Below the pieces are notes generated by a model that saw only the letters and a list, made by a program, of their open reading frames with translations, was not told the origin of the DNA and did no database searches. A DNA stretch of 33,560 nt from Candidatus Saccharimonadales bacterium (GTDB lineage Bacteria; Patescibacteriota; Saccharimonadia; Saccharimonadales; JBBQAJ01): positions 1 through 33,560 of the forward strand of contig JBBQAJ010000006.1 of the NCBI GenBank assembly GCA_038316195.1, written 5' to 3'. The translations under genes and the position numbers were made by a program. Shown one piece after another: positions 3,186 through 22,187 of this stretch. The first letter of the stretch is position 1; each line of letters opens with the position of its first letter.

Positions 3186-3622
3186 AAACTTATTCTGCAA
3201 AACCAACTGACGTAATACGCAAGTGGCACTTAATTGATGCCTCTGAAGCTCCTCTTGGTCGCGTTGCTACTGTTGTTGCAACATTGTTAACCGGCAAGGG
3301 TAAGACGCAGTTTACGCATCATATTGACTGTGGTGATTTTGTTATTATAGTAAACGCTGAAAATCTTGTGGTAACCGGCAACAAGTTAGAAGATAAAAAA
3401 TATTATAAGTACAGTGGATATCCTAGTGGACTTAAAACAACTGCACTTAAAGATTTATTGGCAAAAGATCCTACACAACCTATTTATAAAGCCGTGCGTG
3501 GCATGTTGCCGGTGAATAAATTACGAGCCGAGAGACTAAAAAGACTTAAGATATATTCAGGTGCTCAACATGAACATGATGCACAGAAACCAGAAATATT
3601 ATCAGTGAAAGAGGTTAAATAA
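3182..3622 (+). CDS. rplM: 50S ribosomal protein L13
   Basis: WHLIDA..LGRVA, DCGDFVIIVNA, AVRGMLP; ATGA overlap with rplQ. Confidence 0.98.
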   Translation: MKTYSAKPTDVIRKWHLIDASEAPLGRVATVVATLLTGKGKTQFTHHIDCGDFVIIVNAENLVVTGNKLEDKKYYKYSGYPSGLKTTALKDLLAKDPTQPIYKAVRGMLPVNKLRAERLKRLKIYSGAQHEHDAQKPEILSVKEVK

Positions 3623-4026
3623 TGGCTGAGAATTCAAAACACTACTTTTATGCACTTGGTCGTAGAAAAAGCTCAACAGCAAGAGTCAGGCTTATGAATG
3701 GTAAAGGAACCATAACAATCAATAGTAAACCAGCAAATGAATATTTGTCAGAGAGCAAAACACTACTTCATGAATTAGAAAAACCATTCATAGCACTGGA
3801 AATTCAAAACAAATATGACGTTAGTGCAGTCGTATCTGGGGGAGGACATAGTAGTCAAATAGATGCGATTCGTTTAGGAATAGCAAAAGCTCTAGCAGTT
3901 ATGAACGAAGATCTTAGAAGTACACTTAAAAGAGCTGACTTACTAGGTCGCGACCCAAGAGAAAAAGAGCGCAAGAAATTTGGGCTTAAGGGTGCTCGAA
4001 AACAACGCCAGTTTACTAAACGTTAG
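3622..4026 (+). CDS. rpsI: 30S ribosomal protein S9
   Basis: GRRKSSTARV, GGGHSSQ, RDPREKERKKFGLKGARK..QFTKR. Confidence 0.98.
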   Translation: MAENSKHYFYALGRRKSSTARVRLMNGKGTITINSKPANEYLSESKTLLHELEKPFIALEIQNKYDVSAVVSGGGHSSQIDAIRLGIAKALAVMNEDLRSTLKRADLLGRDPREKERKKFGLKGARKQRQFTKR

Positions 4027-4034
4027 TATAAACT

Positions 4035-4062
4035 TTGACTGTATTGACAATGGTGGTATAAT
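4035..4062 (+). promoter_or_regulatory. Sigma70-type promoter with extended -10 for the aro leader
   Basis: TTGACT 4035-4040, 16-nt spacer, TGgTATAAT 4054-4062; leader ATG 7 nt downstream. Confidence 0.75.
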
Positions 4063-4069
4063 AATTCTT

Positions 4070-4132
4070 ATGTCAACAACTACGCAAAATTGCGCATATT
4101 GGTTTGCTAGCTTTAAAAAGGCGATTGTATAA
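4070..4132 (+). CDS. Putative attenuator leader peptide MSTTTQNCAYWFASFKKAIV (Tyr-Trp-Phe sensing)
   Basis: 20-codon ORF starting at the predicted TSS; tandem TAT-TGG-TTT codons at 4097-4105; overlaps the antiterminator arm GGCGATT 4120-4126. Confidence 0.8.
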   Translation: MSTTTQNCAYWFASFKKAIV

Positions 4133-4156
4133 GTTTAGCATTTAGCAAAACGAAAT

Positions 4157-4181
4157 AAATCGCCAAACAGGCGATTTTTTT
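4157..4181 (+). terminator. Attenuator intrinsic terminator upstream of the DAHP synthase gene
   Basis: AAATCGCC-aaaca-GGCGATTT followed by TTTT; the 5' arm AATCGCC can alternatively pair with 4120-4126. Confidence 0.85.
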
Positions 4182-4197
4182 AATTCAGGAATAATAT

Positions 4198-5463
4198 ATG
4201 TCGATTGAACAATGCATACCATCATCACCAATTTTACAAGAATCATTACGCATAAAAGATGTTCTGTTACCAGCACGCAAAAGAATTGAAGCTGTAAATA
4301 CAATCAATGAAGATCGTGTTCTAAAGAGCATCCGGATTCAATTAGGATACGATTCAGATTTTGCCGATTTGTCTGGACTGATTGATGAAAGAGTTGAAAA
4401 GGTTCCAATGATTACACCTAGAATGGTTGCTGGAGTTCTTCCATTATCAGCTGAGAGTGCAAGAACAACTTTAGAAGCACGAAAAACACTTGCAGACATT
4501 CATAAACATCGTAATTTTAGGTTAGCTGTAGGAATTGGTGAATGTTCTGTTCGTGATCCAGAGATGACGATAGAATATGCAAAAAAAGTTGCAATCTGGC
4601 AAAAACAATTTCCAAATCTTTTTTTGATGCAACGAACATTTTTTGAAAAACCACGCACTCCTAGAAAACTTGGTGATGAAGCACCCTGGAAAGGTTTTAT
4701 GTATGACCCACTTTTAGATGGGTCAAATGACATTAATCTTGGTGTAATTGCAGCAAGAATTATATTATGTACTATTACAAAAATGGGTGTTCCTGCTTTA
4801 AAGGAACAGTTAAATGCACTTACTCCACAGTTTTTAGATGGATTAATTACGCAAGACAATATAGGTGCTAGGAATGTAGGAGACCAGAAATCTATGGAGT
4901 ATGCTTCAGGCACATCAGCGATCGTAGGAGCAAAGAATAATCTTGATGGCGATATTGAGGCAGCAATGCAGGCAGTTGCTTCTGCTCATGGAGAACACGC
5001 TTTTTTGGGAATCGATAATTACGGTAATTTATGTCTAGTGAAAACATTGGGCAATGATACAGCTCATATAATTTTACGTGGAGGCAGCAATGGCCCTAAC
5101 TACGGTAAAGATCACATTCAAGAAGCTCGGGTTTTGGCAGACAAGTATGGTGTCAACTTATCTATAGATATTGATGCTAGCCATGGAAATAGTAACAAAA
5201 TAGCAAAAAATCAAATACAAGTTGCAGAGGACGTTTCAGGGCAAATAGAAGAAGGTGAATTTTCAATAACAGGATTTCAAATGGAAACAAGTTTAGTTGA
5301 AGGATCACAGCCCTTTAAGCTTGGTGAGGCAAAAAACTTAATCTATGGACAAAGTATCACGGATGAAACTCTTGGGATTGCTGATACAGAATATTGTTTG
5401 ACGACACTAAATGAATCAACTGCAAAACGTAGTAAACTAACAATCTCAGATTGGGCAACCTAA
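4198..5463 (+). CDS. 3-deoxy-7-phosphoheptulonate (DAHP) synthase, class I-alpha (AroG/F/H-like), divergent
   Basis: IGECS, FEKPRT, IGAR, GAKN, HIILRGG, DASHGNS, MET, YGQSITD; Cys/His/Glu/Asp metal ligands all present. Confidence 0.9.
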   Translation: MSIEQCIPSSPILQESLRIKDVLLPARKRIEAVNTINEDRVLKSIRIQLGYDSDFADLSGLIDERVEKVPMITPRMVAGVLPLSAESARTTLEARKTLADIHKHRNFRLAVGIGECSVRDPEMTIEYAKKVAIWQKQFPNLFLMQRTFFEKPRTPRKLGDEAPWKGFMYDPLLDGSNDINLGVIAARIILCTITKMGVPALKEQLNALTPQFLDGLITQDNIGARNVGDQKSMEYASGTSAIVGAKNNLDGDIEAAMQAVASAHGEHAFLGIDNYGNLCLVKTLGNDTAHIILRGGSNGPNYGKDHIQEARVLADKYGVNLSIDIDASHGNSNKIAKNQIQVAEDVSGQIEEGEFSITGFQMETSLVEGSQPFKLGEAKNLIYGQSITDETLGIADTEYCLTTLNESTAKRSKLTISDWAT

Positions 5464-6653
5464 TGACAGAGTTAGTTGTTGGTATTCAAGGTGAAAGTGG
5501 TAGTTTTCATGAAGCTGCTGGAAATGAATTCTACACAGATAATGCTGATAGCATTCGCTATGTGCCATTTGCATCGCATGAACTATTACTTCACAATTTA
5601 TTTAACCCTAATAATGAGATTCATGAAGCCGTTATAGCTGTAGATAACAACACTTCTGGTAGAGTTTTAAGTGCAATTAACGCTTTAAGAGAACACCCAG
5701 AAGTTCGTATTATTGGTTCTATTACTTTGAACATAGATCAGCATCTTCTTTTAGCTCCAGGACATGATGAAGCAGGCCTACAAGCTGTTATCTCACAACA
5801 ACCTGCCCTGGACCAGTGCGAAGCTAATATTAAAAATGCAGGCTACAAGGCTATACCATATTACGATACTGCTGCGGCTGCTCGTAGAGTAAGGGATTCA
5901 CGAGGTAGATATCAAGACTTCACTTCTGTTGCTGCAATTGGCTCACGTGTTGCAGGTGATATATTCGGTCTCTCAGTGGGTTCGAAGTTTAACGATATTG
6001 AATATAACGCAACAAAATTTTGGATTTTATCTGATGTTGAAAAAAGTGGTCACGGTAGTCACACGGCATTAACATTTGAAGTTTCAGACCGAGCAGGTTC
6101 ACTGCATCGTGCGATCGGTATATTATCAATGGATTTCGGGTATAATCTTACGGATATTGACAGTCATTTAGCGTCAAAAACAGATCGTAATAGAGCATTT
6201 TTTGCAGAAATTGAGCATGGAGACTCCGATCAGCTAGAGGCTGTAATATCCAAGATGATGGCTGAAGATTTGAACCCACAAGTACTTGGGCAGTACTCAC
6301 CAAAAGGCAGTCCACTAGCTGTTGAAGGTCTGGATCATCATTTACCAGAAGCCCTCAAACATGATGAATGGAGTGGTCGACACGGGTTAAAAAATCCAAA
6401 TGGATCTGCTGTGCTATATGTCGAGACAGATCATACCAGTGGTTCTTTATTTAAAGTACTAGGGAAGCTTGCATCATGTAATCTTGTTGATTTAGGTCGG
6501 CCCACTGTTCCTATAGACCATCAATTTAATAGGGGATTTTACATAGTTATTGATGCAACTACTCAAAGAAATGTCATACAATCAGCGATCGAATCAATCA
6601 GTCAAATGGAAGGTTTTTCGGCAGAAAAAGTAAGTGTTGGAGAGCTAAAGTAA
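5463..6653 (+). CDS. pheA: Prephenate dehydratase (PheA-like) with two ACT-like domains and no chorismate mutase domain
   Basis: QGESGSFHE, QPALDQC, DTAAAA, NATKF (TRF-like); ACT DRAGSL..NLTDIDS and second DHTSGSL..NLVDL; likely start ATG 5463 (TAATG coupling). Confidence 0.8.
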   Translation: MTELVVGIQGESGSFHEAAGNEFYTDNADSIRYVPFASHELLLHNLFNPNNEIHEAVIAVDNNTSGRVLSAINALREHPEVRIIGSITLNIDQHLLLAPGHDEAGLQAVISQQPALDQCEANIKNAGYKAIPYYDTAAAARRVRDSRGRYQDFTSVAAIGSRVAGDIFGLSVGSKFNDIEYNATKFWILSDVEKSGHGSHTALTFEVSDRAGSLHRAIGILSMDFGYNLTDIDSHLASKTDRNRAFFAEIEHGDSDQLEAVISKMMAEDLNPQVLGQYSPKGSPLAVEGLDHHLPEALKHDEWSGRHGLKNPNGSAVLYVETDHTSGSLFKVLGKLASCNLVDLGRPTVPIDHQFNRGFYIVIDATTQRNVIQSAIESISQMEGFSAEKVSVGELK

Positions 6654-7411
6654 TGAGTAAGCAAGAATCAATCGGTATAGTTGGCGCGTATGGTGATTTA
6701 GGGCGACAAATGGCAGTTCAAGCAACTAGCGCGTATTCTGAAGTTTTTCTTTACGACATCCCAAAAGTATCTCCAGTTTCTTCGCTGCAGGGGATAGATT
6801 CTGAACTATCAGCTGAAACATTAAATAATCGTCCACAGATAGCCAACAACCTAGGTGAATTGGTTGAACTTTCTGACATAGTCCACTGGTGTGCTCCTAT
6901 TTCCGGATTAGAGGATTTAGAAAAAATAGATGAAGACACAACATTAATACTACATGATAGTGTTATGCAAAACAGTATTGAGGCAAGTACTGATTTAAAA
7001 CAATGCATAAACGTTTTAGGCACTATTGCGATTGTTCACTGTTTGGTCAATAATCCAAATACCGTCGTAGTTGCATCTGATAGCCTTGGGGCCAATTTAG
7101 CATGGAATCATTTTATAACATTGGGGTTAAGTCCTATTTATAAAACAGTAAAAGAACACGATACTGCAATGGCTCAGAGTCAGGGCGTTTTTGCACTAAA
7201 CATTTTGAGACATTATGCAGATTTGAAACAACTACAGTCTATTGGATTATTAACGCAATCATCGCTGGAATTTCTTCATGCCATGGAAGCGCGTGTTTCT
7301 AGATGGACGCCTGTAACTTTAAAAGCTATTCTAAGTAATCCAGAATTGAATGCTAGCCCACAAGTTACGCTAGTAGAAATTGATGATTTTATTTCTGAAC
7401 ATTATCACTAA
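6653..7411 (+). CDS. Prephenate/arogenate dehydrogenase (TyrA-like), divergent
   Basis: Rossmann IGIVGAYGDLG; KEHDTAMAQSQG matches the TyrA EHDxxMxxxQ motif; TAATG coupling to pheA. Confidence 0.7.
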   Translation: MSKQESIGIVGAYGDLGRQMAVQATSAYSEVFLYDIPKVSPVSSLQGIDSELSAETLNNRPQIANNLGELVELSDIVHWCAPISGLEDLEKIDEDTTLILHDSVMQNSIEASTDLKQCINVLGTIAIVHCLVNNPNTVVVASDSLGANLAWNHFITLGLSPIYKTVKEHDTAMAQSQGVFALNILRHYADLKQLQSIGLLTQSSLEFLHAMEARVSRWTPVTLKAILSNPELNASPQVTLVEIDDFISEHYH

Positions 7412-7494
7412 CTATACAAATTATTACGTTGAAATATATAATAGATGCATAAAGAAATATGAAGTAGGTTTTCTGAACCTATATCCTTCATAAG

Positions 7495-7524
7495 TTGACA
7501 TAGAAATTGACAATGTGATAGTAT
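7495..7524 (+). promoter_or_regulatory. Sigma70-type promoter with extended -10 for the trp leader
   Basis: TTGACA 7495-7500, 18-nt spacer, TGaTAGTAT 7516-7524; leader ATG 7 nt downstream. Confidence 0.7.
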
Positions 7525-7531
7525 TTTAATT

Positions 7532-7621
7532 ATGTCTAAAATATATGGCAATACAATAAACCGATCGATTAGCACGCAAACGACTTGGCAAAACTCTCAT
7601 AACGTACGGGAGTCAATTTAG
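7532..7621 (+). CDS. Putative trp attenuator leader peptide MSKIYGNTINRSISTQTTWQNSHNVRESI
   Basis: 29-codon ORF starting at the predicted TSS; single TGG at 7586-7588; overlaps the antiterminator arm ACGGGAGT 7606-7613. Confidence 0.72.
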   Translation: MSKIYGNTINRSISTQTTWQNSHNVRESI

Positions 7622-7649
7622 TATAATTTAAAATTAAATATCTAAAAGC

Positions 7650-7674
7650 AATACTCCCGTCAGGGAGATTTTTT
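7650..7674 (+). terminator. Attenuator intrinsic terminator upstream of ORF-trpB-trpA
   Basis: AAT(A)CTCCC-gtca-GGGAGATT followed by TTTT; ACTCCCGT 7653-7660 is the perfect complement of 7606-7613. Confidence 0.8.
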
Positions 7675-7693
7675 AATTTAAGGAGATAAAAAT

Positions 7694-7921
7694 ATGAACG
7701 AAGCAATCAACACATTAGATTATTTCGATAAGTCAACAGACAAATCACAGCAATTAAATGTTGCTACAAAGATTGGAAATATGATTATTCAGAAAACTAA
7801 AATAGAAGAAGCATCATTACTAAATAATGATTATTTCAATGGACGACTACAAGCATCGTTAGCTGAAGAAGATCGTTTTGTGGAATTATTTGGGTACTAT
7901 CCGGGTGGGCTGGGATTATGA
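7694..7921 (+). CDS. Small hypothetical protein (75 aa), first gene of the trpBA operon
   Basis: AAGGAG at 7681-7686; ATGA overlap with trpB; no recognised motif. Confidence 0.75.
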   Translation: MNEAINTLDYFDKSTDKSQQLNVATKIGNMIIQKTKIEEASLLNNDYFNGRLQASLAEEDRFVELFGYYPGGLGL

Positions 7922-9138
7922 TGTCCAATAATAAAAATCAATATTTCGGTAAATATGGTGGACGATATGTACCAGAAATGCTTCAGCAAACGTTAGAAAA
8001 TTTGGCTCAATCATATGACAAATTAAAAAAAGAAACCAGTTTTCAAAATGAATTGTTTGATTTACAAACTAAATTTAACAATAGACCGACACCATTAGTT
8101 TTTGCAGAGAACCTAACTAATAAATTAGGGGGTGCACAAATCTACCTTAAAAATGAAGGAATGAACCATACAGGGGCACACAAGATTAATCATTGCCTTG
8201 GACAAGCTTTAGTAGCAAAAAGACTACAAAAAACCAGACTAATTGCTGAAACGGGTGCAGGACAACATGGTTTAGCGACGGCAACAGTTGCAGCAAAGAT
8301 GGGATTCGAATGCACTATCTATATGGGTGAAATTGATATGGATAGGCAAAGGCCAAATGTAATTCTTATGGAATTACTTGGTGCAAAAGTTGTACCAGTC
8401 AGTTTTGGTTCTAGAACATTGAAAGACGCTGTAACCTCAGCAATGAAAGATCTTTTACAAAATTCAGATATTACACATTACGTAATTGGTTCGTGTCTTG
8501 GACCGGACCCTTATCCACGCATGAACCGTGATTTTCAATCCATAATTGGCAAAGAAATACACAAACAGCTAAAAATCCTACCGGATTATGTAATTGCGTG
8601 TGTTGGGGGTGGTAGTAATGCTCTAGGAGCTTTTACGGAGTTTTTAAAGTACCCATCAGTAAGTCTGGTTGGCGTTGAAGCGGGAGGTATAAGTTCTAAA
8701 ATCGGTCAACACGCGACTCGTTTTCCTGATGCTAAAATCGGAATATTTGAAGGTTATAAATCGTATTTCCTACAAGACAAAAATGGAAACTCCTCCAAAA
8801 CACATAGTATAGCTGCTGGACTCGATTATATTGGCATTGGACCTGAGCTATCTGAACTCCACGACAGTAAGCGAGTTGAATTTGTACATGCCAACGATGA
8901 TGAAGTTTTGGAAGCAGTAAAAACGCTTGCGATAACCGAAGGTATCATTCCTGCTTTAGAGTCAGCTCATGCAGTCGTTCATGCAATAAAAATCGCAAAA
9001 ATTTTGTCAAAGGATAAGAAAATAGTCGTAAATATATCAGGGCGAGGAGACAAAGATATATTTACGCTCGCTAAACATTTTGATGAGCTTAAGTTTACAA
9101 AATTTTTACGAAAGGAGTTAAATCAATATGACAAATAA
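7918..9138 (+). CDS. trpB: Tryptophan synthase beta chain
   Basis: FGKYGGRYVPE, HTGAHKIN (PLP Lys), AETGAGQHG, CVGGGSNA, EGIIPALESAHA, SGRGDKD. Confidence 0.98.
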   Translation: MMSNNKNQYFGKYGGRYVPEMLQQTLENLAQSYDKLKKETSFQNELFDLQTKFNNRPTPLVFAENLTNKLGGAQIYLKNEGMNHTGAHKINHCLGQALVAKRLQKTRLIAETGAGQHGLATATVAAKMGFECTIYMGEIDMDRQRPNVILMELLGAKVVPVSFGSRTLKDAVTSAMKDLLQNSDITHYVIGSCLGPDPYPRMNRDFQSIIGKEIHKQLKILPDYVIACVGGGSNALGAFTEFLKYPSVSLVGVEAGGISSKIGQHATRFPDAKIGIFEGYKSYFLQDKNGNSSKTHSIAAGLDYIGIGPELSELHDSKRVEFVHANDDEVLEAVKTLAITEGIIPALESAHAVVHAIKIAKILSKDKKIVVNISGRGDKDIFTLAKHFDELKFTKFLRKELNQYDK

Positions 9139-9880
9139 AATAATGACGCATGTAGTGGCTGGATATCCTACGCGTCAATTGTGCGTTGAATTACTTCTAG
9201 GTATGCAGAATTCTGGCGCAACAATGGTTGAAATTCAATTTCCTTTTTCAGATCCAAGCGCTGATGGAGAAATAATAATGAAAGCCAACGAAGTTGCTAT
9301 AGGCAATAATATTACAATTAATAATTGCTTCAAAATGATAGAAGTAGCAAATAAAAACGGGTTAAAAATTCCCGTATACGTTATGAGCTACGCGAATAAA
9401 CTATTTCATTTTGGATATAAAAGGTTCTGTCACAACGCAAATAAATATAATGTCTCAGGCATACTTGTTCCAGATTTGCCATTTGATACTTCAGATTATA
9501 TAGACTTACAGAAACATACTAACAGTTACGGGATAGAACTCGTTCCTGTACTATCACCTGGAATTCAAATTGAACGAGTAAACAATTACGAGCTACATAA
9601 GAAAAAGCTTGTCTATATTTCAAGTACTAAAGGAATTACAGGTAATGATCTACATATTCAGCCTGAATTGTTGAGCTTAATCGAAATAGTGAAATCTAAG
9701 TCTAGCTGTAAGATTGCTCTAGGATTTGGGATTCGATCAAACTTACATGTAGAACAAGCTTTAGAGGTAGCTGATATTGCAGTCGTTGGCAGTGAGGTAA
9801 TAAGAAATATTCATAATAATGAAATTGGAGATGCAATTAAGTTAGTCTCTAAACTTGTTTACGGGTCTAAAGACTCCTAA
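9128..9880 (+). CDS. trpA: Tryptophan synthase alpha chain
   Basis: EIQFPFSDPSADG, VPDLP, GITG, GFGI, VVGS; overlaps the trpB end. Confidence 0.95.
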   Translation: MTNKIMTHVVAGYPTRQLCVELLLGMQNSGATMVEIQFPFSDPSADGEIIMKANEVAIGNNITINNCFKMIEVANKNGLKIPVYVMSYANKLFHFGYKRFCHNANKYNVSGILVPDLPFDTSDYIDLQKHTNSYGIELVPVLSPGIQIERVNNYELHKKKLVYISSTKGITGNDLHIQPELLSLIEIVKSKSSCKIALGFGIRSNLHVEQALEVADIAVVGSEVIRNIHNNEIGDAIKLVSKLVYGSKDS

Positions 9881-9914
9881 ATACGGGCGTTTTCTACTAT
9901 ACTAATGAATAACA

Positions 9915-10946
9915 ATGACTAAACAAGTAATCTTGACAGGACTCAGAGCAAATAATGATCTTCACTTGGGAAATTATTTAGGTGCTCTTTTACCAATTGT
10001 AGACTTGGCAAACTCTCAAGCAGGTAAATATCAAATTAATTTATTTGTCCCAGATTTGCACAGTTTCACAACTCCAATAGATCATACAAAGCTATATAGA
10101 CAAATTATTGTTAGTTTAAAGTTTTTTGTTGCAGCTGGGTTAGATATTAATAACAAAGATTTATTTTTATATAGACAAAGCTTTATTCCAGCCCATAGTG
10201 AACTTGCTTGGATATTAAATTGTTTTACAGGCTTTGGTGAACTTACTCGCATGACAGAATTCAAAGATAAATCAGCACGCATTGGGAAAGATCACATAGG
10301 AGTCGGTCAATTTGACTATCCACCACTAATGGCAGCCGATATATTACTGTACGACGCTTTATACGTCCCAGTAGGGGATGACCAACGTCAGCACTTAGAA
10401 TTTACAAGAACTATTGCAGAAAGATTAAATAACAAATTTGGAAAACTATTTACAATTCCAAAATCAACATCCGAACAGCATGTTTTTTTTGGAAATGATC
10501 AAGGTGTTAGGGTTAGGGATTTACAAGAACCTACAAAAAAAATGAGTAAAAGTGATGAAACTGGTAAAGGCGTAATTTTCTTGAGCGACTCTCCTACATT
10601 AGCAAAGAAAAAAATAATGAGCGCAACGACTGACAGTCTTGGAAGAATAGCGTATAACAGAGCTGAACAGCCAGGCTTGACAAATTTAATAGATATGTTG
10701 GCACAAATGACCAATAAAAGCGTAGGTGATATATGCAAAAAATACGTTGGACATGCTCAATATGGACCATTAAAAAGTGAATTAGCCGATGCAATAGCTG
10801 AATTCTTATCTAAATTTCAATCCAAACTAACAAAGGTAGATGAAAAATCACTAATAAGAAAATTACAAGTTAGTGAAGAAGCTATGAATAAACAGGCAAA
10901 TTTAAAACTTATAAAAATTCAACAAGCCGTTGGACTTAGAAAATGA
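9915..10946 (+). CDS. trpS: Tryptophanyl-tRNA synthetase
   Basis: HLGNYLG, YPPLMAADIL, VPVGDDQRQHLE, KMSKS. Confidence 0.97.
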   Translation: MTKQVILTGLRANNDLHLGNYLGALLPIVDLANSQAGKYQINLFVPDLHSFTTPIDHTKLYRQIIVSLKFFVAAGLDINNKDLFLYRQSFIPAHSELAWILNCFTGFGELTRMTEFKDKSARIGKDHIGVGQFDYPPLMAADILLYDALYVPVGDDQRQHLEFTRTIAERLNNKFGKLFTIPKSTSEQHVFFGNDQGVRVRDLQEPTKKMSKSDETGKGVIFLSDSPTLAKKKIMSATTDSLGRIAYNRAEQPGLTNLIDMLAQMTNKSVGDICKKYVGHAQYGPLKSELADAIAEFLSKFQSKLTKVDEKSLIRKLQVSEEAMNKQANLKLIKIQQAVGLRK

Positions 10947-15855: not shown

Positions 15856-16936
15856 GAGTAACCGGCAAAATCGTGGAGGTTTTTAGTCCATTTACTCTCT
15901 GTTAATTAGCAATAAGTAATGTCGTAAGACATTACTTATACATGAAACAACGAGGATTTCGCTACTGCCCCACCTGCAGTACAAAGCTACAAAAGCGTGG
16001 ATTAACAGCTGCTGGTACCCAACGTTGGTTGTGTATTGTTTGCAGCAGGAGTGGTACAAAACCACGGCCAGATTTATCTCAAGCTTTGCTCTTGGAACGG
16101 TTTGTCGCCTGGCTACTAGGGAAACAATCCCAAGCAGACTTACCAGGTTCTGAACGCACATGGCGAGCCCAAACGGCTTGGTGTTGGAAGATTGTGCCGC
16201 CACAAATACACAGTGGCGAGATTTATCCGGTAGTAATCATAGACGGCATCCGGATTGGCAGTACAGTCTGCCTCATTGCTCGTACTCCTGAATACGTCAT
16301 TGGTTGGCACTGGGCACCATATGAATCCAGTGGCACCTGGTCTGAGCTGTTTGACCAGTACCCAGCTCCTAGCTTTGTGGTCTGTGATGGCCAGAAAGGT
16401 ATCTTACTGGGACTTAAGCGATCGTGGCCAACAACGGCAATACAGCGCTGCCATTTCCATGTCTGGCAGAATGTCCGAAGTAAGCTAACTCTGCATCCCC
16501 AAACTGAAGCTGGACAAGATCTCCTACGTCTGACCAGAGGCTTGTGGCAAGTCTACGGTCCAGAGCATATGACAGCTTGGCGGACTGGTTTCAGACTTTG
16601 GGAAGAAATATACTGTGACTTTGTAAAACAACGCACCTATCACCAAGAGCCAACAGCTGGCAGACGACGCTGGTGGTATACCCATGGACGGCTCAGAAGT
16701 GCCTACAACCAACTCAGGAAGTTGCAGGAGGATAACCAATTATTTACGTTCATTCATAACCCAAGAGTACCGATACCTAGAAACACCAATCACATGGAAG
16801 GAGGTATTAACTCCCAGCTCAGAACCAAGCTCAAACTACATCGAGGTATGAACGAAGAGCACCAAAGACGACTGGTTGAATGGTATCTTTACAGTCGAAC
16901 CGAAGACCCAAAACCTCCACGAAATTGCCTATAACC
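15856..16936 (+). mobile_element. IS256-family (IS1249-like) insertion sequence, ~1.08 kb
   Basis: Inverted repeats 15864-15888 and 16905-16929 (21/25 match); direct repeat TTCTTTTCC at 15847-15855 and 16937-16945; visibly higher GC than flanks. Confidence 0.9.
15942..16934 (+). CDS. IS1249-like DDE transposase
   Basis: N-terminal CPTC...GTQRWLCIVC Zn ribbon; IIDG, VVCDGQKG, IQRCHFH, NTNHMEGGINSQL. Confidence 0.93.
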   Translation: MKQRGFRYCPTCSTKLQKRGLTAAGTQRWLCIVCSRSGTKPRPDLSQALLLERFVAWLLGKQSQADLPGSERTWRAQTAWCWKIVPPQIHSGEIYPVVIIDGIRIGSTVCLIARTPEYVIGWHWAPYESSGTWSELFDQYPAPSFVVCDGQKGILLGLKRSWPTTAIQRCHFHVWQNVRSKLTLHPQTEAGQDLLRLTRGLWQVYGPEHMTAWRTGFRLWEEIYCDFVKQRTYHQEPTAGRRRWWYTHGRLRSAYNQLRKLQEDNQLFTFIHNPRVPIPRNTNHMEGGINSQLRTKLKLHRGMNEEHQRRLVEWYLYSRTEDPKPPRNCL

Positions 16937-17760: not shown

Positions 17761-19689
17761 TTAAGTTTTTGAGTAGTCTAAAACAGTATTAATAAATTCT
17801 GCGTGACTCCATATAAGTGGTGTAACTGACACAATCGAACCATCGTTTGGGTTAACTTGTTCCGATAGAACACCACTGTATAGTTTATGATCATTTGCCC
17901 AATCTAAATAATGCTTAGCTTTTTCTTTCTGGCCAGAACGTACGTAAAACTGCGCCAACCAAAGTGTAGTCACAAACCAGGGGTTACCCATATATGCTGG
18001 ACTCGAAGCAAAATAATTATCGTTTTCATAGCGAGGGCATCCTCCTGATGGACTTTTGTCCAAGAGTACGTTTTCAATTTTGAGTATAGTTTTTTGTATT
18101 TGTTCAATGCCATTGTTCAGTCCATACATAAGTACACCATACAAACTAGATACATCTAAAGTGTCGTCAAAATTTAAAGAACCATCTTGCATTAGTAAAT
18201 AGCCTTTTCTGTATATTTCCATCTTAGGGTTAAAAAGTATACTCGAATTATTCTTTATTTTATTTGCAACTTCTCGCCACAAAACGGCATCATCAGGATA
18301 TTCAAACATATCAGCAAACTGTGCAGCTGTCATTAACGCTTGAAATACAACTGAAACGGTATAAGTTGATGTCAGAAACTTTTCTTCCCACAAATCGTAA
18401 CTTGCATGTGGCAATCCTGTTTCGCTGTCAATAAACGCTGACATGAAGTTTGCGGCTGGTTGTATGAAAGTGCTATAAAGGCTCTGAACAAACTCTTGGT
18501 CGTTTGAATATTCTAAATATTCACCAAGCATGTAAATCACAATTGCCGTTTCATCTTCCTGGATAGCTAACTCTTTGCGTTTATTATGTATGAGAGGGTG
18601 CCAAGTACTTCCTATAGCCTTATCAGGTTGATATTTATGCATCAAATACCCATCAGGATTCATGATATCTCTACAAAATTCAAAGAATTTTTTAGGTTCT
18701 TCACAGTAACCCAGTCTTATCAATGGCCATATGACATAGGCACCATCTCTTGGCCAAACGTAACTGTAATAATCTCTACCATAATTGTATATAGAAGAAT
18801 CAGCACTTGCTATCACCCCACCTCGTTTATCAATATGAGAACGCAAAACTAGAAGTGACTTTGAAACCATAATTTTGAATTCGTCTGGTACCTTACTTCT
18901 TTTGTTCTCAGACAAAGACAGCCATGAATGCCAATTCTGTCTAGTTTTTTCTCTACGAACATTATTAGTAGATTCTTTGAATAAATTGTGAATTTTTTCT
19001 GCTGATTGCTGTGAATCTGACGCAACTATCCAATAGTCGACAGTACTAGTTGCCCGTGAAGGCATTTTAAGTTTAAATCGCATAACAGAGTCAACTCCAC
19101 CATGTTCAACAGCACTGCCAGATAATTCGCCATCTTCGGCATCTTTGAATGTACCTTCTTTTCCTTCAATTCCATAACTTCCAACAGCATATTGGTCAAA
19201 GGGTTTGCCTTCAGTCTCTCCATAAATCAGCAAACTTACGCGTCCTTTATAGTCTAGTATGTAGTTTTCTTCTGGTACGAATAACGCTGTATCGGCTCGA
19301 CCTGCATGTGATATTTGAAATACTTGGTGTAAAAACACTCTAATTTCTCTAGCATCATCATATGCATTTTCAACTTGTATAACCCTACTAAATACGTTGT
19401 ACTCAGAATCTACAAAGTCATTTAATACTAGTTTTATTCCTAATTGCTCGTTTTTCATAGTTATTCGACTGATAAGTGCATCATTTTCAAAATCAACTAC
19501 CGTTTGCCAACTGCCATCATCTACCCAAGTAAACTTTCCGTTTACCCAAATACCGATCATATGATGAGCACTACGAGCATTGGTGAGATTTTCTAAACCA
19601 ACGTAAGGATAATAAAAATCATGGACAAGCCCGTTTTCATTTAAGCCCACAGTAAGTGCGCCATTGCCAAGCATTACTAGTCTTGCCAT
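17761..19689 (-). CDS. Glycoside hydrolase family 15 (glucoamylase-like)
   Basis: YSYVWPRDGA, QEDETA, DLWEE, LSEQV...PLIWSHAEF; start likely ATG 19689 just after the GH57 stop. Confidence 0.92.
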   Translation of the reverse strand: MARLVMLGNGALTVGLNENGLVHDFYYPYVGLENLTNARSAHHMIGIWVNGKFTWVDDGSWQTVVDFENDALISRITMKNEQLGIKLVLNDFVDSEYNVFSRVIQVENAYDDAREIRVFLHQVFQISHAGRADTALFVPEENYILDYKGRVSLLIYGETEGKPFDQYAVGSYGIEGKEGTFKDAEDGELSGSAVEHGGVDSVMRFKLKMPSRATSTVDYWIVASDSQQSAEKIHNLFKESTNNVRREKTRQNWHSWLSLSENKRSKVPDEFKIMVSKSLLVLRSHIDKRGGVIASADSSIYNYGRDYYSYVWPRDGAYVIWPLIRLGYCEEPKKFFEFCRDIMNPDGYLMHKYQPDKAIGSTWHPLIHNKRKELAIQEDETAIVIYMLGEYLEYSNDQEFVQSLYSTFIQPAANFMSAFIDSETGLPHASYDLWEEKFLTSTYTVSVVFQALMTAAQFADMFEYPDDAVLWREVANKIKNNSSILFNPKMEIYRKGYLLMQDGSLNFDDTLDVSSLYGVLMYGLNNGIEQIQKTILKIENVLLDKSPSGGCPRYENDNYFASSPAYMGNPWFVTTLWLAQFYVRSGQKEKAKHYLDWANDHKLYSGVLSEQVNPNDGSIVSVTPLIWSHAEFINTVLDYSKT

Positions 19690-19690
19690 A

Positions 19691-20902
19691 TTATGCCTCA
19701 ACTCCCAAGCAACTTAGTCTATATACTAAGTCGTGCCACGCATTCATGAAGTTGATAAAAGCTTCATAAGGGGTGTCATACGGACTAAAATAGGCATGTA
19801 TATCGCCATCGTTGAACCATTTAGTACACATATAATAAAAATGATCAGAAGTTTGAAGTTTTCGCCAATCTTCGATTAGACTTAAATTCCCGGTTTGGAG
19901 TATTTTGTTTTGCAATCCATATAAAGCCGTAATGGCTTGCTGTTGCATTGGATTTCCTAGCCAAGCTGACAAATCACGCTCTGAATCGGCCCAGGTTATA
20001 GTTTGAGGGACGTCAACTTGATCGACTGGTTCAAAGCTTTGAACAGTTTCACTAACAGTCATAAAAGTATTTTCACTTTCTTTTAGCCATTCAGATGGCA
20101 AATGACTCAAGAATTCAAATATCCCACCTTCACTCCATTGATGTTCTCCAAATGTCTCATAATCCATAAAAAGATTGAAGTTAGTGCCATCGCCAGAGTC
20201 TTTTACCCATTTCACAAATTTATCTGCTGTTAAAGGCCAACCAGACCAATCTCTGTCTCCAAAACGAAAAGCGATATCGTCACTTAATTTGTAATTTTTC
20301 ATAAGTAATTTTATGTTGTCTGTGTATGTCGGTCGATAAACATAATTGGGGCTTCGCCATCCTAATATTGGATCCCAACCTTCAGTAAGAATACCGGTGT
20401 ATCCAGCTCTATCTGCCCAGTATGCCAAATCATTATTGTAGCTAAGTTCAGTGTTTCTAAAAACTTTTGGAGTTTGCCCAAACAATTGTTCAATTTTGTT
20501 TTTATGCATTTCGACTTGCATTTCAAACTCGGAAAGGGAATAGAAGAATGCCAAGCTATGGTGGAAAGTTTCAGCTACTATTTCAACTCTTCCAGTCTCA
20601 GTTAATTTTTGAAAAGACTCTAATACATGTGGTGCATAGCGCTCAAATTGCTCCAGAACTGTACCAGATAAAGATAAACTTACTTTAAACTCAGGGTGCT
20701 GGTCTAAAAGTTCCATAAGTTTTTTATTCATAGGCAAATATGATTTTTCAGCAACTTTTTGAATGATTGATTGGTTATTTGTTTTAGAATCAATTGGCGC
20801 ATCAAAATAATCGTGATTTTTAGAGGCATCAAATATTGTATAGTGACGGACACGAAAAGGTTGGTGAACGTGCAAATAAAGTACTATTGCTTTGCGGCTC
20901 AT
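19691..20902 (-). CDS. Glycoside hydrolase family 57 (alpha-amylase-like)
   Basis: HVHQP, ETFHHSL, FRNTEL, FMDYETFGEHQW, QTSDHFYYM. Confidence 0.93.
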   Translation of the reverse strand: MSRKAIVLYLHVHQPFRVRHYTIFDASKNHDYFDAPIDSKTNNQSIIQKVAEKSYLPMNKKLMELLDQHPEFKVSLSLSGTVLEQFERYAPHVLESFQKLTETGRVEIVAETFHHSLAFFYSLSEFEMQVEMHKNKIEQLFGQTPKVFRNTELSYNNDLAYWADRAGYTGILTEGWDPILGWRSPNYVYRPTYTDNIKLLMKNYKLSDDIAFRFGDRDWSGWPLTADKFVKWVKDSGDGTNFNLFMDYETFGEHQWSEGGIFEFLSHLPSEWLKESENTFMTVSETVQSFEPVDQVDVPQTITWADSERDLSAWLGNPMQQQAITALYGLQNKILQTGNLSLIEDWRKLQTSDHFYYMCTKWFNDGDIHAYFSPYDTPYEAFINFMNAWHDLVYRLSCLGVEA

Positions 20903-20978
20903 AGTGTTAATGTTCCAAGTCTAAAAGCAATTTCATTGTGCGTAAAAATGTGAAAATTAATTAATTTTCCTGAGGAAT

Positions 20979-22187
20979 TCATACCAAAGCCTTTTGTATG
21001 TGGAATTTATACGCAGTCAATAGCTTGTCTGCTGCTTGACTCCAGCTTAATTCGTCTAATTCCATTCTTGAATTTCTTTGCAATGTATCTCGTAGTACAT
21101 CGTTTTTAACGACTGAGGTAATTTGGTTTGCCATTTCACGAATATCCCAAAAATCTACCTTTAAGCAGTTGGCAATAACTTCAGAAACACCGGACTGTTT
21201 ACTGATAAGAGCTGGTGTACCATATCCAATAGATTCAAGTGGAGTTAGCCCAAACGGTTCTGAAACAGAAGGCATAACGAACAAATCTCCAATAGCAAAC
21301 GCATCTCGCCATTGTTTGCCTCGCATAAAACCTACAAAAAGTACATTTTTACTTATTCCCAGTTCTGCTGCTAATTCAATAAGCTCAGTATTTTGCTCCC
21401 CAGAACCAACAACTAGAAATATTGTTTTAGGTGCACTTTCTATTACTGCCTTAGCAGCTTTAAGTAAGTTAGGAAGTCCTTTTTGAATGGTTAATCTTCC
21501 AACATTTACTACGACCCTATAGCCGTGCTGTTTCATTGTTTCAAGGTAACTATAGCTGTTATCTCCGTCGATAGGTAGAATCTCAGATAAATCAACACTG
21601 TTATGAATTATTTCGATCTTATCAAATGGAATTTTATACTCTCTTATTATGGCTTTTTTGGTGTGATTGCTGACGGCAATTATTTTGTCAGCCAACATCA
21701 TTGCGTTATATTCGATTTCTCTAACTAAATGGTTGCCTTCATTTTCTCGTCCAGCCCTGTCCGACTCAATTGAATGAACATGTAAAATTAAAGGTCTGTT
21801 AGATTTTTCTTTTGCACGAAGAGCAGCTCTAAAAGTTAACCAATCGTGAGCGTGAATCAAATCAAAACTAGTCTCATCTACTATTCTGCCTACGGCCTCT
21901 TCGTATATTGTGCTTTGATCAAACAAATCAACCCACTCTGTTTCGCCAGAAATTTTAGTATATTTAAAACTATCATACGGGATACCAGAGTTAATTACAG
22001 TCTTTACGTCTTGAGGGTGAGCTGTATTTATTTTCATAAAATCTATACCATGTTCAGCTGTATATGGCACGACAAATTCAATATCAACGGTTTTTTTAGA
22101 TAACGCTTTGCATAGCTGGTAACATGCCACACCAAGTCCACCACTGTTATAAGGTGGTAATTCCCATCCCAACATTAATATCTTCAT
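20979..22187 (-). CDS. GT4/GT-B glycosyltransferase (glycogen synthase-like)
   Basis: GWELPPYNSGGLG, HAHDW, GRLTIQKG, PSVSEPFGLTPLE. Confidence 0.92.
   Translation of the reverse strand: MKILMLGWELPPYNSGGLGVACYQLCKALSKKTVDIEFVVPYTAEHGIDFMKINTAHPQDVKTVINSGIPYDSFKYTKISGETEWVDLFDQSTIYEEAVGRIVDETSFDLIHAHDWLTFRAALRAKEKSNRPLILHVHSIESDRAGRENEGNHLVREIEYNAMMLADKIIAVSNHTKKAIIREYKIPFDKIEIIHNSVDLSEILPIDGDNSYSYLETMKQHGYRVVVNVGRLTIQKGLPNLLKAAKAVIESAPKTIFLVVGSGEQNTELIELAAELGISKNVLFVGFMRGKQWRDAFAIGDLFVMPSVSEPFGLTPLESIGYGTPALISKQSGVSEVIANCLKVDFWDIREMANQITSVVKNDVLRDTLQRNSRMELDELSWSQAADKLLTAYKFHIQKALV

Follow-up and report, generated by a model that had tools for sequence, protein, structure and literature searches.

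The 33,560-nucleotide stretch analysed here (the window) is the entire contig C20 of a Candidatus Saccharimonadales genome, G000 in our set, which comprises 887,939 bp in 24 contigs (completeness 98.87%, contamination 0.01). Between rpsI and trpS it encodes a 3-deoxy-D-arabino-heptulosonate 7-phosphate (DAHP) synthase (DAHPS), a divergent prephenate dehydratase (PDT), a protein resembling the prephenate/arogenate dehydrogenase TyrA and both subunits of tryptophan synthase (TrpBA), whilst the trunk of the aromatic pathway was not found in any part of the genome. In the reading we favour, and to which we give about an even chance, the locus would be an attenuator-controlled, trunkless aromatic module of an epibiotic Saccharibacterium, induced by starvation to salvage prephenate or arogenate, together with indole, from a host. 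The bacterium probably finishes host-derived aromatic building blocks and does not carry out a synthesis of its own.

Gene content of the island and the missing trunk pathway

Over the first 14 kb of the window the plus strand carries, in order, rpsM, rpsK, rpsD, rpoA, rplQ, rplM, rpsI, the DAHPS, PDT and TyrA-like genes, a small open-reading frame (ORF), trpB, trpA, trpS, rluD, holB, a tetratricopeptide repeat (TPR) protein gene and a class IV aminotransferase gene. An initial annotation had described three genes coupled by TAATG overlaps and placed between rpsI and trpBA of a genome resembling those of the candidate phyla radiation (CPR), with no aroB/D/E/K/A/C or chorismate mutase gene in the window. 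The three ORFs were recovered at those positions, all on the plus strand, with a TAATG overlap at both the DAHPS/PDT and PDT/TyrA-like junctions (5461-5465 and 6651-6655), the first of which makes ATG 5463 the likely PDT start, not TTG 5451. The CPR assignment also held, the best 80 RpoA relatives in genome_contigs being mostly Candidatus Saccharimonadales or Saccharibacteria, with a few otherwise or generically labelled, and at 0.89 Mb G000 sits among listed Saccharimonadales genomes that are all 0.5-1.6 Mb. The features of the island, all on the plus strand, are as follows.

3622-4026, +: rpsI
4035-4062, +: promoter-like site 1 (TTGACT, 16-nt spacer, TATAAT, TG before the -10 box), putative function
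4070-4132, +: leader ORF 1, 20 codons (MSTTTQNCAYWFASFKKAIV), adjacent Tyr-Trp-Phe codons at 4097-4105
4120-4126, +: putative antiterminator strand 1, GGCGATT, within the end of leader ORF 1, pairs with 4158-4164
4157-4183, +: predicted intrinsic terminator 1 (hairpin 4157-4177), AAATCGCC-AAACA-GGCGATTT followed by a T run
4198-5463, +: type I-alpha DAHP synthase, 421 aa (TIGR00034 profile, PDB match, alignment, AlphaFold2 (AF2) model)
5463-6653, +: divergent PDT, 396 aa (PF00800; alternative TTG start at 5451)
6653-7411, +: divergent short TyrA-fold (prephenate/arogenate dehydrogenase-like) NAD(P) enzyme, 252 aa (AF2 with Foldseek, hhalign)
7495-7524, +: promoter-like site 2 (TTGACA, 18-nt spacer, TAGTAT, TG), putative function
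7532-7621, +: leader ORF 2, 29 codons (MSKIYGNTINRSISTQTTWQNSHNVRESI), single Trp codon at 7586-7588
7606-7613, +: putative antiterminator strand 2 (ACGGGAGT), pairs with 7653-7660
7654-7675, +: predicted intrinsic terminator 2 (hairpin 7654-7667), CTCCC-GTCA-GGGAG, then A and a T run
7694-7921, +: orf75, no assigned function, ATGA overlap with the trpB start
7918-9138, +: trpB, tryptophan synthase beta (TIGR00263, 533.1 bits against a cut-off of 392.45)
9128-9880, +: trpA, tryptophan synthase alpha (TIGR00262, 167.6 bits against a cut-off of 102.35)
9915-10946, +: trpS, tryptophanyl-tRNA synthetase (PF00579), the conserved downstream anchor of the leader-controlled unit in the order

The absence of trunk genes noted for the window extends to the whole genome. 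Whole-genome six-frame family searches, in each of which named control genomes gave matches, returned nothing for PF01264, PF01761, PF01220, PF01487, PF08501, PF01202, PF01817, PF07736 or PF00425 in the 887,939 bp, and nothing for PF00591 or PF00697. Chorismate synthase, 3-dehydroquinate synthase, both dehydroquinases, shikimate dehydrogenase, shikimate kinase and the chorismate mutase families CM_1 and CM_2 were not found genome-wide, and neither were anthranilate synthase component I (TrpE), TrpD and phosphoribosylanthranilate isomerase (TrpF). A tblastn search of the whole genome with the aroB/A/K/E/D/C, chorismate mutase and TrpE proteins of G026, a relative with a complete operon, gave nothing at E<=0.01. 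The single genome-wide match to the 5-enolpyruvylshikimate-3-phosphate (EPSP) synthase family (PF00275, C17:873-2117) is presumed to be a putative murA. On the same contig a free-standing 189-aa ORF (C17:7783-8349; L132:1501-2070) resembles indole-3-glycerol-phosphate synthase (TrpC) at 30.9 bits over model positions 48-140 only, and looks too short for a full barrel.

One of the two readings offered in the annotation, a rare prototroph with the rest of the pathway elsewhere, is therefore rejected, eleven family searches and tblastn having found no trunk gene in a 98.9%-complete genome. That the genes exist but went unassembled or unbinned has, in our estimate, a very small chance. It draws what support it has from the 24-contig metagenome assembly; the two listed runs that contain the stretch are sediment metagenome DNA from one study, with no RNA run listed. 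Against it, at least ten genes would have to be jointly absent at the completeness given above; moreover G002, the other genome of the genus that carries the island (100% complete by estimate), also lacks aroC and CM_2, and G244, a single-contig genome, has a DAHPS but no aroB or aroC. Nor is a complete conventional pathway widespread among the relatives, which the annotation had named as a reason to doubt its account: aroC occurs in 6 of the 301 Saccharimonadales genomes (G000 included) on which all order-wide counts below are based.

Under salvage, host prephenate or arogenate would be converted to Phe and Tyr by PDT, the TyrA-like protein and a transaminase whose gene lies elsewhere, and TrpBA would make Trp from indole and serine; because tryptophan synthase is kept without TrpE, TrpD or TrpF, Trp synthesis would have to start from an intermediate supplied from outside, for example indole. 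The genome encodes transketolase, one class I/II aminotransferase (228 bits) and two class IV aminotransferases. Partial pathways and TrpBA-only salvage are already known kinds of thing. Genital Chlamydia trachomatis salvages indole with TrpBA only, and like G000 has tryptophan synthase without TrpE/D/F, but in G000 TrpBA is linked to a putative Trp-codon attenuator, trpS, enzymes of the Phe/Tyr branch and DAHPS. The nested insect endosymbionts Tremblaya and Moranella share patchwork aromatic pathways, a single route being split between partners that each retain steps; there, however, both genomes are known and their genes sum to the full pathway, whereas the steps that G000 retains are the pathway's two ends. 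In the available text of a groundwater study, trpA/trpB are given for 15-18% of some Patescibacteria metagenome-assembled genomes (PMC8672522).

Putative leader-peptide attenuators

Two leader-peptide attenuators, absent from the annotation, appear from their sequence to tie these genes to the aromatic amino-acid supply. Promoter-like site 1 is the best consensus match within 3900-10100 (11/12), and at both sites the -10 box ends 7 nt before the leader ATG, a spacing repeated in G002, G007 and G256, so that the leader ORFs are probably translated from leaderless mRNA. Neither leader ORF has a Shine-Dalgarno sequence (4057-4072 and 7519-7534), and the structural genes behind the terminators have AGGAG-type sites. 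The Tyr, Trp and Phe codons of leader 1, which are its codons 10-12, correspond exactly to the three products of the pathway.

Each terminator has a predicted competitor, in which its 5′ arm pairs with a strand that a ribosome terminating on the leader would cover. Antiterminator fold 1 (4112-4168) has a predicted energy of -15.6 kcal/mol (z -5.2, with none of 200 shuffles as good) and a duplex dG of -10.2, its strand beginning 19 nt past the Trp codon; fold 2 (7598-7664) reaches -14.1 kcal/mol (z -4.1, 1 of 200 shuffles as good). A shortage of charged tRNA-Tyr, tRNA-Trp or tRNA-Phe would stall the ribosome at the Tyr-Trp-Phe codons of leader 1 or the Trp codon of leader 2, and with the ribosome halted there the GGCGATT (or ACGGGAGT) strand would become available for pairing with the terminator's 5′ arm, allowing transcription to read through. 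The ORF, terminator and antiterminator architecture of an attenuator thus appears to be in place at both sites, with a predicted read-through response.

Comparison between loci points the same way. G002 carries both leaders, its leader 2 homologue having the same C-terminal end in the same place, and in the eight loci resolved by script the antiterminator strand always falls within the final 11-28 nt of the leader ORF, with the Trp codon 19-23 nt upstream of it in six. The paired strands change together between loci with pairing kept (GGCGATT/AATCGCC, GGCGGT/ACCGCC, GGCGGCT/AGCCGCC and CGGGAG/CTCCC). An aromatic leader heads 12 of the 14 type I-alpha DAHPS units, and DAHPS is the one cargo gene common to all 12; the two leaderless units, in G199 and G180, are also without the DAHPS N-terminal helix described below and without the rpsI-trpS context. 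Of 63 rpsI-trpS gaps, 37 contain a short [FY]WF-bearing ORF with a T run after it, against five matches in the remaining 1.86 Mb of the same loci and one in 63 shuffled gaps. No Rfam family reached its gathering score in the window or in the loci of six relatives, and Trp_leader (RF00513) scored 21.6 bits over 4099-4184 against a gathering score of 41.

Leader 1 belongs to an order-wide attenuator family with a conserved W-F-T/S core, seen in the rpsI-trpS stretch of L052-L131 (for example L070:12358-12468 and L112:14628-14743). In an alignment of 34 copies, little or no variation is seen in TGGTTTAC or in the blocks GTGGCGGTTT, AACCGCCAC and GGCGGTTTTTT. TGGTTTAC itself is constant, while the codon that follows it shows third-position differences or encodes Ser instead, a pattern that points to conservation at the amino-acid level and possibly to a role of the leader family as a nascent peptide. 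By eye, the codons after WF in canonical copies (ACCGACAC) resemble the 5′ arm of the terminator, and these codons could serve as a fourth segment by pairing with the GTGGCGGT strand.

A close described parallel is the aroR-aroF attenuator of Corynebacterium glutamicum (Neshat et al. 2014, as described in the review PMC11802643), which likewise lies upstream of a DAHPS gene, aroF; its short leader ORF has aromatic codons side by side (Phe-Tyr-Phe) and acts by ribosome stalling. The G000 system differs in its Tyr-Trp-Phe codons, its apparently leaderless ORF, the family's control of trpS in relatives and the want of any known route for using DAHP. Leader-peptide attenuators before synthetase genes are described for Streptomyces trpS and leuS in the portion of PMC1262725 accessible to us, and these, like E. 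coli pheST, combine a cognate-codon leader, a terminator and a competing antiterminator, as seen before Saccharimonadales trpS; the difference from such classical cases is that some Saccharimonadales hold biosynthetic cargo between leader and trpS.

The three enzymes

The DAHPS scores 275.9 bits on TIGR00034 (aroFGH), above the curated equivalog cut-off of 173.2, and 152.8 bits on PF00793; its best PDB match among solved I-alpha enzymes has an E of 2.1e-67 (1n8f, 1.5e-64). Residues C116, K151-P152-R153, R225, K246, R294, H329, E363 and D389 align with the solved enzyme and are invariant in the 14 Saccharimonadales DAHPS, which come from eight families; we take them to be the metal ligands (Cys, His, Glu, Asp) and the phosphoenolpyruvate (PEP) and erythrose 4-phosphate binders of E. 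coli AroG. The active site is, by alignment, complete, and catalysis is predicted. With E. coli AroG/AroF/AroH (TIGR00034; 1n8f, 1kfl) the protein has in common the family, the fold, the Cys/His/Glu/Asp metal site and the KPRT, GAR, KN and LRGG motifs. It departs from them in about 65 extra N-terminal residues, which the AF2 model (pLDDT 91.0) folds as a single long helix (12-48) followed by a loop, in a short insertion after KPRT where model confidence is low, and in a genome that lacks aroB-aroC. The helix is lineage-specific. Control also differs, by leader peptide in G000 and by the TyrR/TrpR repressors in E. coli. A chorismate mutase hidden in the extension was considered and rejected, as Pfam on that segment (E<=10) gave nothing relevant and one 37-residue helix is not the three-helix AroQ fold.

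The PDT scores 106.9 bits on PF00800 against a gathering score of 25.2, and N182, T184 and F186 are invariant in an alignment of G000, G002 and four relatives. Besides the PDT domain the protein has a weak ACT match (E 0.026 at 14.7 bits and E 0.0092 at 16.2 bits, both short of the 27-bit cut-off), and about 110 further C-terminal residues, at best weakly ACT-like, are possibly a second ACT-like domain. An internal repeat found by Smith-Waterman (score 42) was equalled by 19 of 2000 shuffles, weak support for a duplication, and BLASTP detected no ACT repeat within the protein. Pfam on the cut-out extension (E<=10) gave nothing relevant, and a chorismate mutase hidden there was likewise rejected.

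For the third gene the annotation's TyrA-like label holds at the level of fold. The AF2 model (pLDDT 91.3) matches both the Rossmann domain and the helical dimerisation domain, and Foldseek ranks 1-11 in the PDB are all prephenate dehydrogenases (E down to 7.6e-10, TMq 0.62-0.71, with 0.67-0.71 for the top matches). A protein-language-model look-up returned prephenate dehydrogenase clusters at 0.94, and hhalign of the family with the short TyrA of G004 and G056 gave 96.3% probability (E 1.6e-9, 193 columns), in which S103 falls on the Ser of SVK and H129 on the His of HPLFGP. The protein has the glycine-rich dinucleotide loop (G8, G11, G14), a nearly invariant S103 and H129; presumably the loop binds the dinucleotide and the Ser and His are catalytic. 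Of the short TyrA proteins (237-244 aa in Saccharibacteria), that of G004 scores 54.3 bits on PDH_N and that of G056 matches soybean PDH1 (5t9e) at E 5.9e-17; they share with the TyrA-like protein the fold, the GxxGxxG loop, the Ser/His pair and an (E/D)HD motif. The TyrA-like protein differs in having SVM for SVK and HCL for HPL, and its profile (15 homologues) reached soybean PDH1 only at E 0.019, a single-sequence search of PDB chains having given no meaningful match.

Distribution, divergence and competing readings

Type I-alpha DAHPS of high score occurs in 14 genomes of the order, 12 of them without aroC, out of 19 with any DAHPS above cut-off. PDT was found in 117 (5 with aroC, 112 without), CM_2 above cut-off in 47, sometimes fused to PDT, TrpA in 10 (5 without aroC) and strong matches to the TyrA-like family in 7. 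Unpublished G262 is counted in the PDT, CM_2 and TyrA-like tallies and unpublished G035 only among DAHPS below cut-off, and no claim depends on either of them by itself. Of 30 genomes in family f51, 9 have aroB, G257 among them, but it was not found in the DAHPS-bearing G244, G229 and G140. By these counts few genomes have a complete pathway and trunkless ends are widespread; such ends are a trait of the order and not an oddity of G000.

The backbone rpsI ... trpS-rluD-holB-TPR is conserved in relatives, and the rpsI-trpS gap ranges from 79 bp to ~6.2 kb, with the following cargo.

G000, G002: DAHPS-PDT-TyrA-like-trpBA
G007: DAHPS-TrpE
G076: DAHPS-PDT
G183: PDT-DAHPS
G256: DAHPS alone
G055: a gene of no assigned function and DAHPS
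L081, L107: PDT alone
L089: trpBA
Many other genomes and loci: nothing aromatic

This patchiness is what would be expected if the genes were relics of an ancestral complete pathway at the site, now being lost and without a present role, and the same could be said of their varying presence inside the genus, of f51 genera with aroB and aroC beside sister genera with DAHPS only, and of the accelerated evolution described below. The comparison of G000 with G002 speaks otherwise. Synonymous sites are saturated (pS 0.70-0.82), so only dN can be compared and not dN/dS; dN is 0.18 for trpB, 0.235 for DAHPS, 0.29 for trpA, 0.39 for PDT and 0.51 for TyrA-like, against 0.31 and 0.34 for the essential neighbours trpS and holB. 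All reading frames are intact in both genomes despite that saturation, and DAHPS, PDT and TyrA-like are, judged from these substitutions, under purifying selection, with DAHPS changing less than either essential neighbour. The start/stop overlaps and both attenuators are preserved in G002, the DAHPS active-site residues do not vary across eight families, and PDT without aroC, at 112 of 301 genomes, is too common for transient decay. We give loss in progress a low probability.

A number of observations weigh against salvage. By profile score the DAHPS and PDT of this genus diverge further than any others in the order (DAHPS 276-281 bits against 321-479 elsewhere; PDT 109-112 against mostly 160-217), and the stem branch leading to the genus is 1.82 substitutions per site long for DAHPS, compared with 0.16 for the five proteins of the ribosomal cluster. 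The PDT falls below NCBIfam equivalog cut-offs (NF008865, 111.2 against 219; NF008866, 108.9 against 359) and in G000 and G002 reads T-K-F where four relatives have T-R-F, which we take to be the motif holding the catalytic Thr. The TyrA-like protein has no Pfam family at E<=10 (PDH_N PF02153 and PDH_C PF20463 both fail) and no NCBIfam match of note, and its invariant W218 falls, by two chained alignments and hence weakly, at the position that sets prephenate or arogenate use in plant enzymes. PDT is itself missing in 7 of the 12 aroC-less I-alpha DAHPS genomes, and only two of the four searched genomes of the genus carry the island. In many rpsI-trpS loci the leader stands directly before trpS with no cargo, so its presence alone does not prove that cargo serves the aromatic supply. 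No transporter for prephenate, arogenate or DAHP turned up, no systematic search having been made. The product of DAHPS needs aroB, and salvage therefore gives the enzyme no role: it is conserved, leader-headed and, by alignment, complete in its active site, and the scheme does not account for it.

Several of these points would fit a change of function, in which a fast-evolving trio no longer acts on DAHP-pathway substrates and is merely housed in a trpS attenuator unit; the new substrate might be another 2-keto-3-deoxy sugar acid or another cyclohexadienyl or aromatic compound, or the role might be amino-acid sensing through ACT domains. Besides the long stem branch, the T-K-F motif, the Pfam failure and W218, this account can call on the low-confidence insertion beside KPRT, the added second ACT-like region of PDT, the rarity of the TyrA-like family (14 matches in a large protein search, two of them named prephenate dehydrogenase by their source) and seven genomes with an orphan DAHPS and no other aromatic enzyme. 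Set against it are the invariant metal- and PEP-binding residues of a DAHPS that exceeds the curated aroFGH cut-off, the presumed catalytic Thr that PDT retains, the His and Ser that align as catalytic in the TyrA-like protein, and the exact match of the leader 1 codons to the three pathway products. We consider a changed function unlikely, though with a real share of the probability.

The remaining puzzle is DAHPS itself, which does not qualify as the first step of a shikimate pathway of the genome's own, aroB, aroD/Q, aroE, aroK and aroC all being absent. The annotation's second reading, a symbiont that keeps only control-point enzymes and exchanges intermediates with a host, fits the gene content; exchange would explain PDT, TyrA-like and TrpBA but not DAHPS. 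A role for DAHPS would follow if the enzyme or its product were delivered to the host, bypassing the host's feedback-inhibited first step and raising its aromatic output for harvest. A shortage of Tyr, Trp or Phe would then switch on DAHPS through the W-F-T/S leader, which may sense through its nascent peptide besides its codons, and PDT, the TyrA-like protein and TrpBA would finish the intermediates that leak back. Of the schemes offered, only this one assigns the orphan first-step enzyme a function connected with aromatic starvation, and it agrees with the presence of DAHPS in every leader-headed I-alpha unit and with the conserved, clade-specific N-terminal helix. We nevertheless see only a slim chance for it, since no signal peptide or secretion signal is evident by eye, neither an exporter nor an importer is known for DAHP, a charged phosphate ester, and the scheme is pure conjecture.

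Eight-taxon trees of DAHPS and of the five ribosomal-cluster proteins do not settle the position of the genus (62/67), their single supported conflict being the grouping of G007 with G183 instead of G076, and a peptide-pattern search of genome_contigs for close DAHPS relatives gave 17 matches, none of them confirmed. In an all-vs-all BLASTP of 25 neighbouring ORFs, the only conserved partners of orphan DAHPS were a 257-271-aa family and an alpha/beta hydrolase, both shared within f51 and neither present in G000; the two, the former without a Pfam match, adjoin DAHPS at L047:6348-8047, L045:9168-9947 and L042:4880-7869. Weakly DAHPS-like proteins with 24-31% identity to the G026 DAHPS also sit in the rpsI-trpS gap of L073, L075, L083, L100 and L120, and the 16 DAHPS matches below cut-off across the order are mostly open frames of ~380-430 aa; these weakly DAHPS-like proteins may be degenerate or repurposed paralogues.

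Other relatives hold different portions of the pathway. In G007 (L009:2029-5089), which has no aroC match, the gene after DAHPS encodes a full-length anthranilate synthase component I (531 aa) and trpS comes next, a pairing of first step and branch point. G056 (L136:612-3999) has a canonical PDT, a HisC-like aminotransferase, the short TyrA (244 aa) and a class I tRNA synthetase (TyrRS by eye), with CM_2 6 kb from the PDT cluster and no aroC match in the genome. The operon of G026 (L011:357-7999, family f24) is compact and complete, comprising a DAHPS of another subtype, aroB, aroA, aroK, aroE, aroD, aroC, chorismate mutase and a class IV aminotransferase, and adjoins the folate gene HPPK. The counterpart of orf75 (75 aa) in G002 is a 157-aa ORF in the same place (L008:11411-11884); both have a good ribosome-binding site and ATGA coupling to trpB, neither has a Pfam match, and similarity between the two was undetectable. 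Elsewhere in the window, a Mutator-family transposase-like ORF (15942-16934) adjoins a minus-strand cluster (17761-22187) of glycoside hydrolases GH15 and GH57 and a GT4/starch-synthase-like glycosyltransferase, which suggests storage-glucan metabolism.

CPR bacteria, Saccharibacteria among them, are usually portrayed as unable to synthesise amino acids, and how they draw nutrients from their hosts is an open question on which this locus bears. In the literature as far as its text was available, we found no paper on trunkless aromatic modules or orphan DAHPS in Saccharibacteria, or on their placement in a trpS attenuator unit, though the supplementary tables of CPR studies may list the genes. 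Many Saccharimonadales retain particular ends of the aromatic pathway while the trunk is missing, and place these genes behind switches whose apparent input is the supply of aromatic aminoacyl-tRNA. The locus points to specific metabolites that may be exchanged (prephenate or arogenate, chorismate, indole and perhaps DAHP), all testable in the few cultured Saccharibacteria-Actinobacteria pairs, and it poses a well-defined puzzle, that of a conserved and apparently regulated first-step enzyme without a second step.

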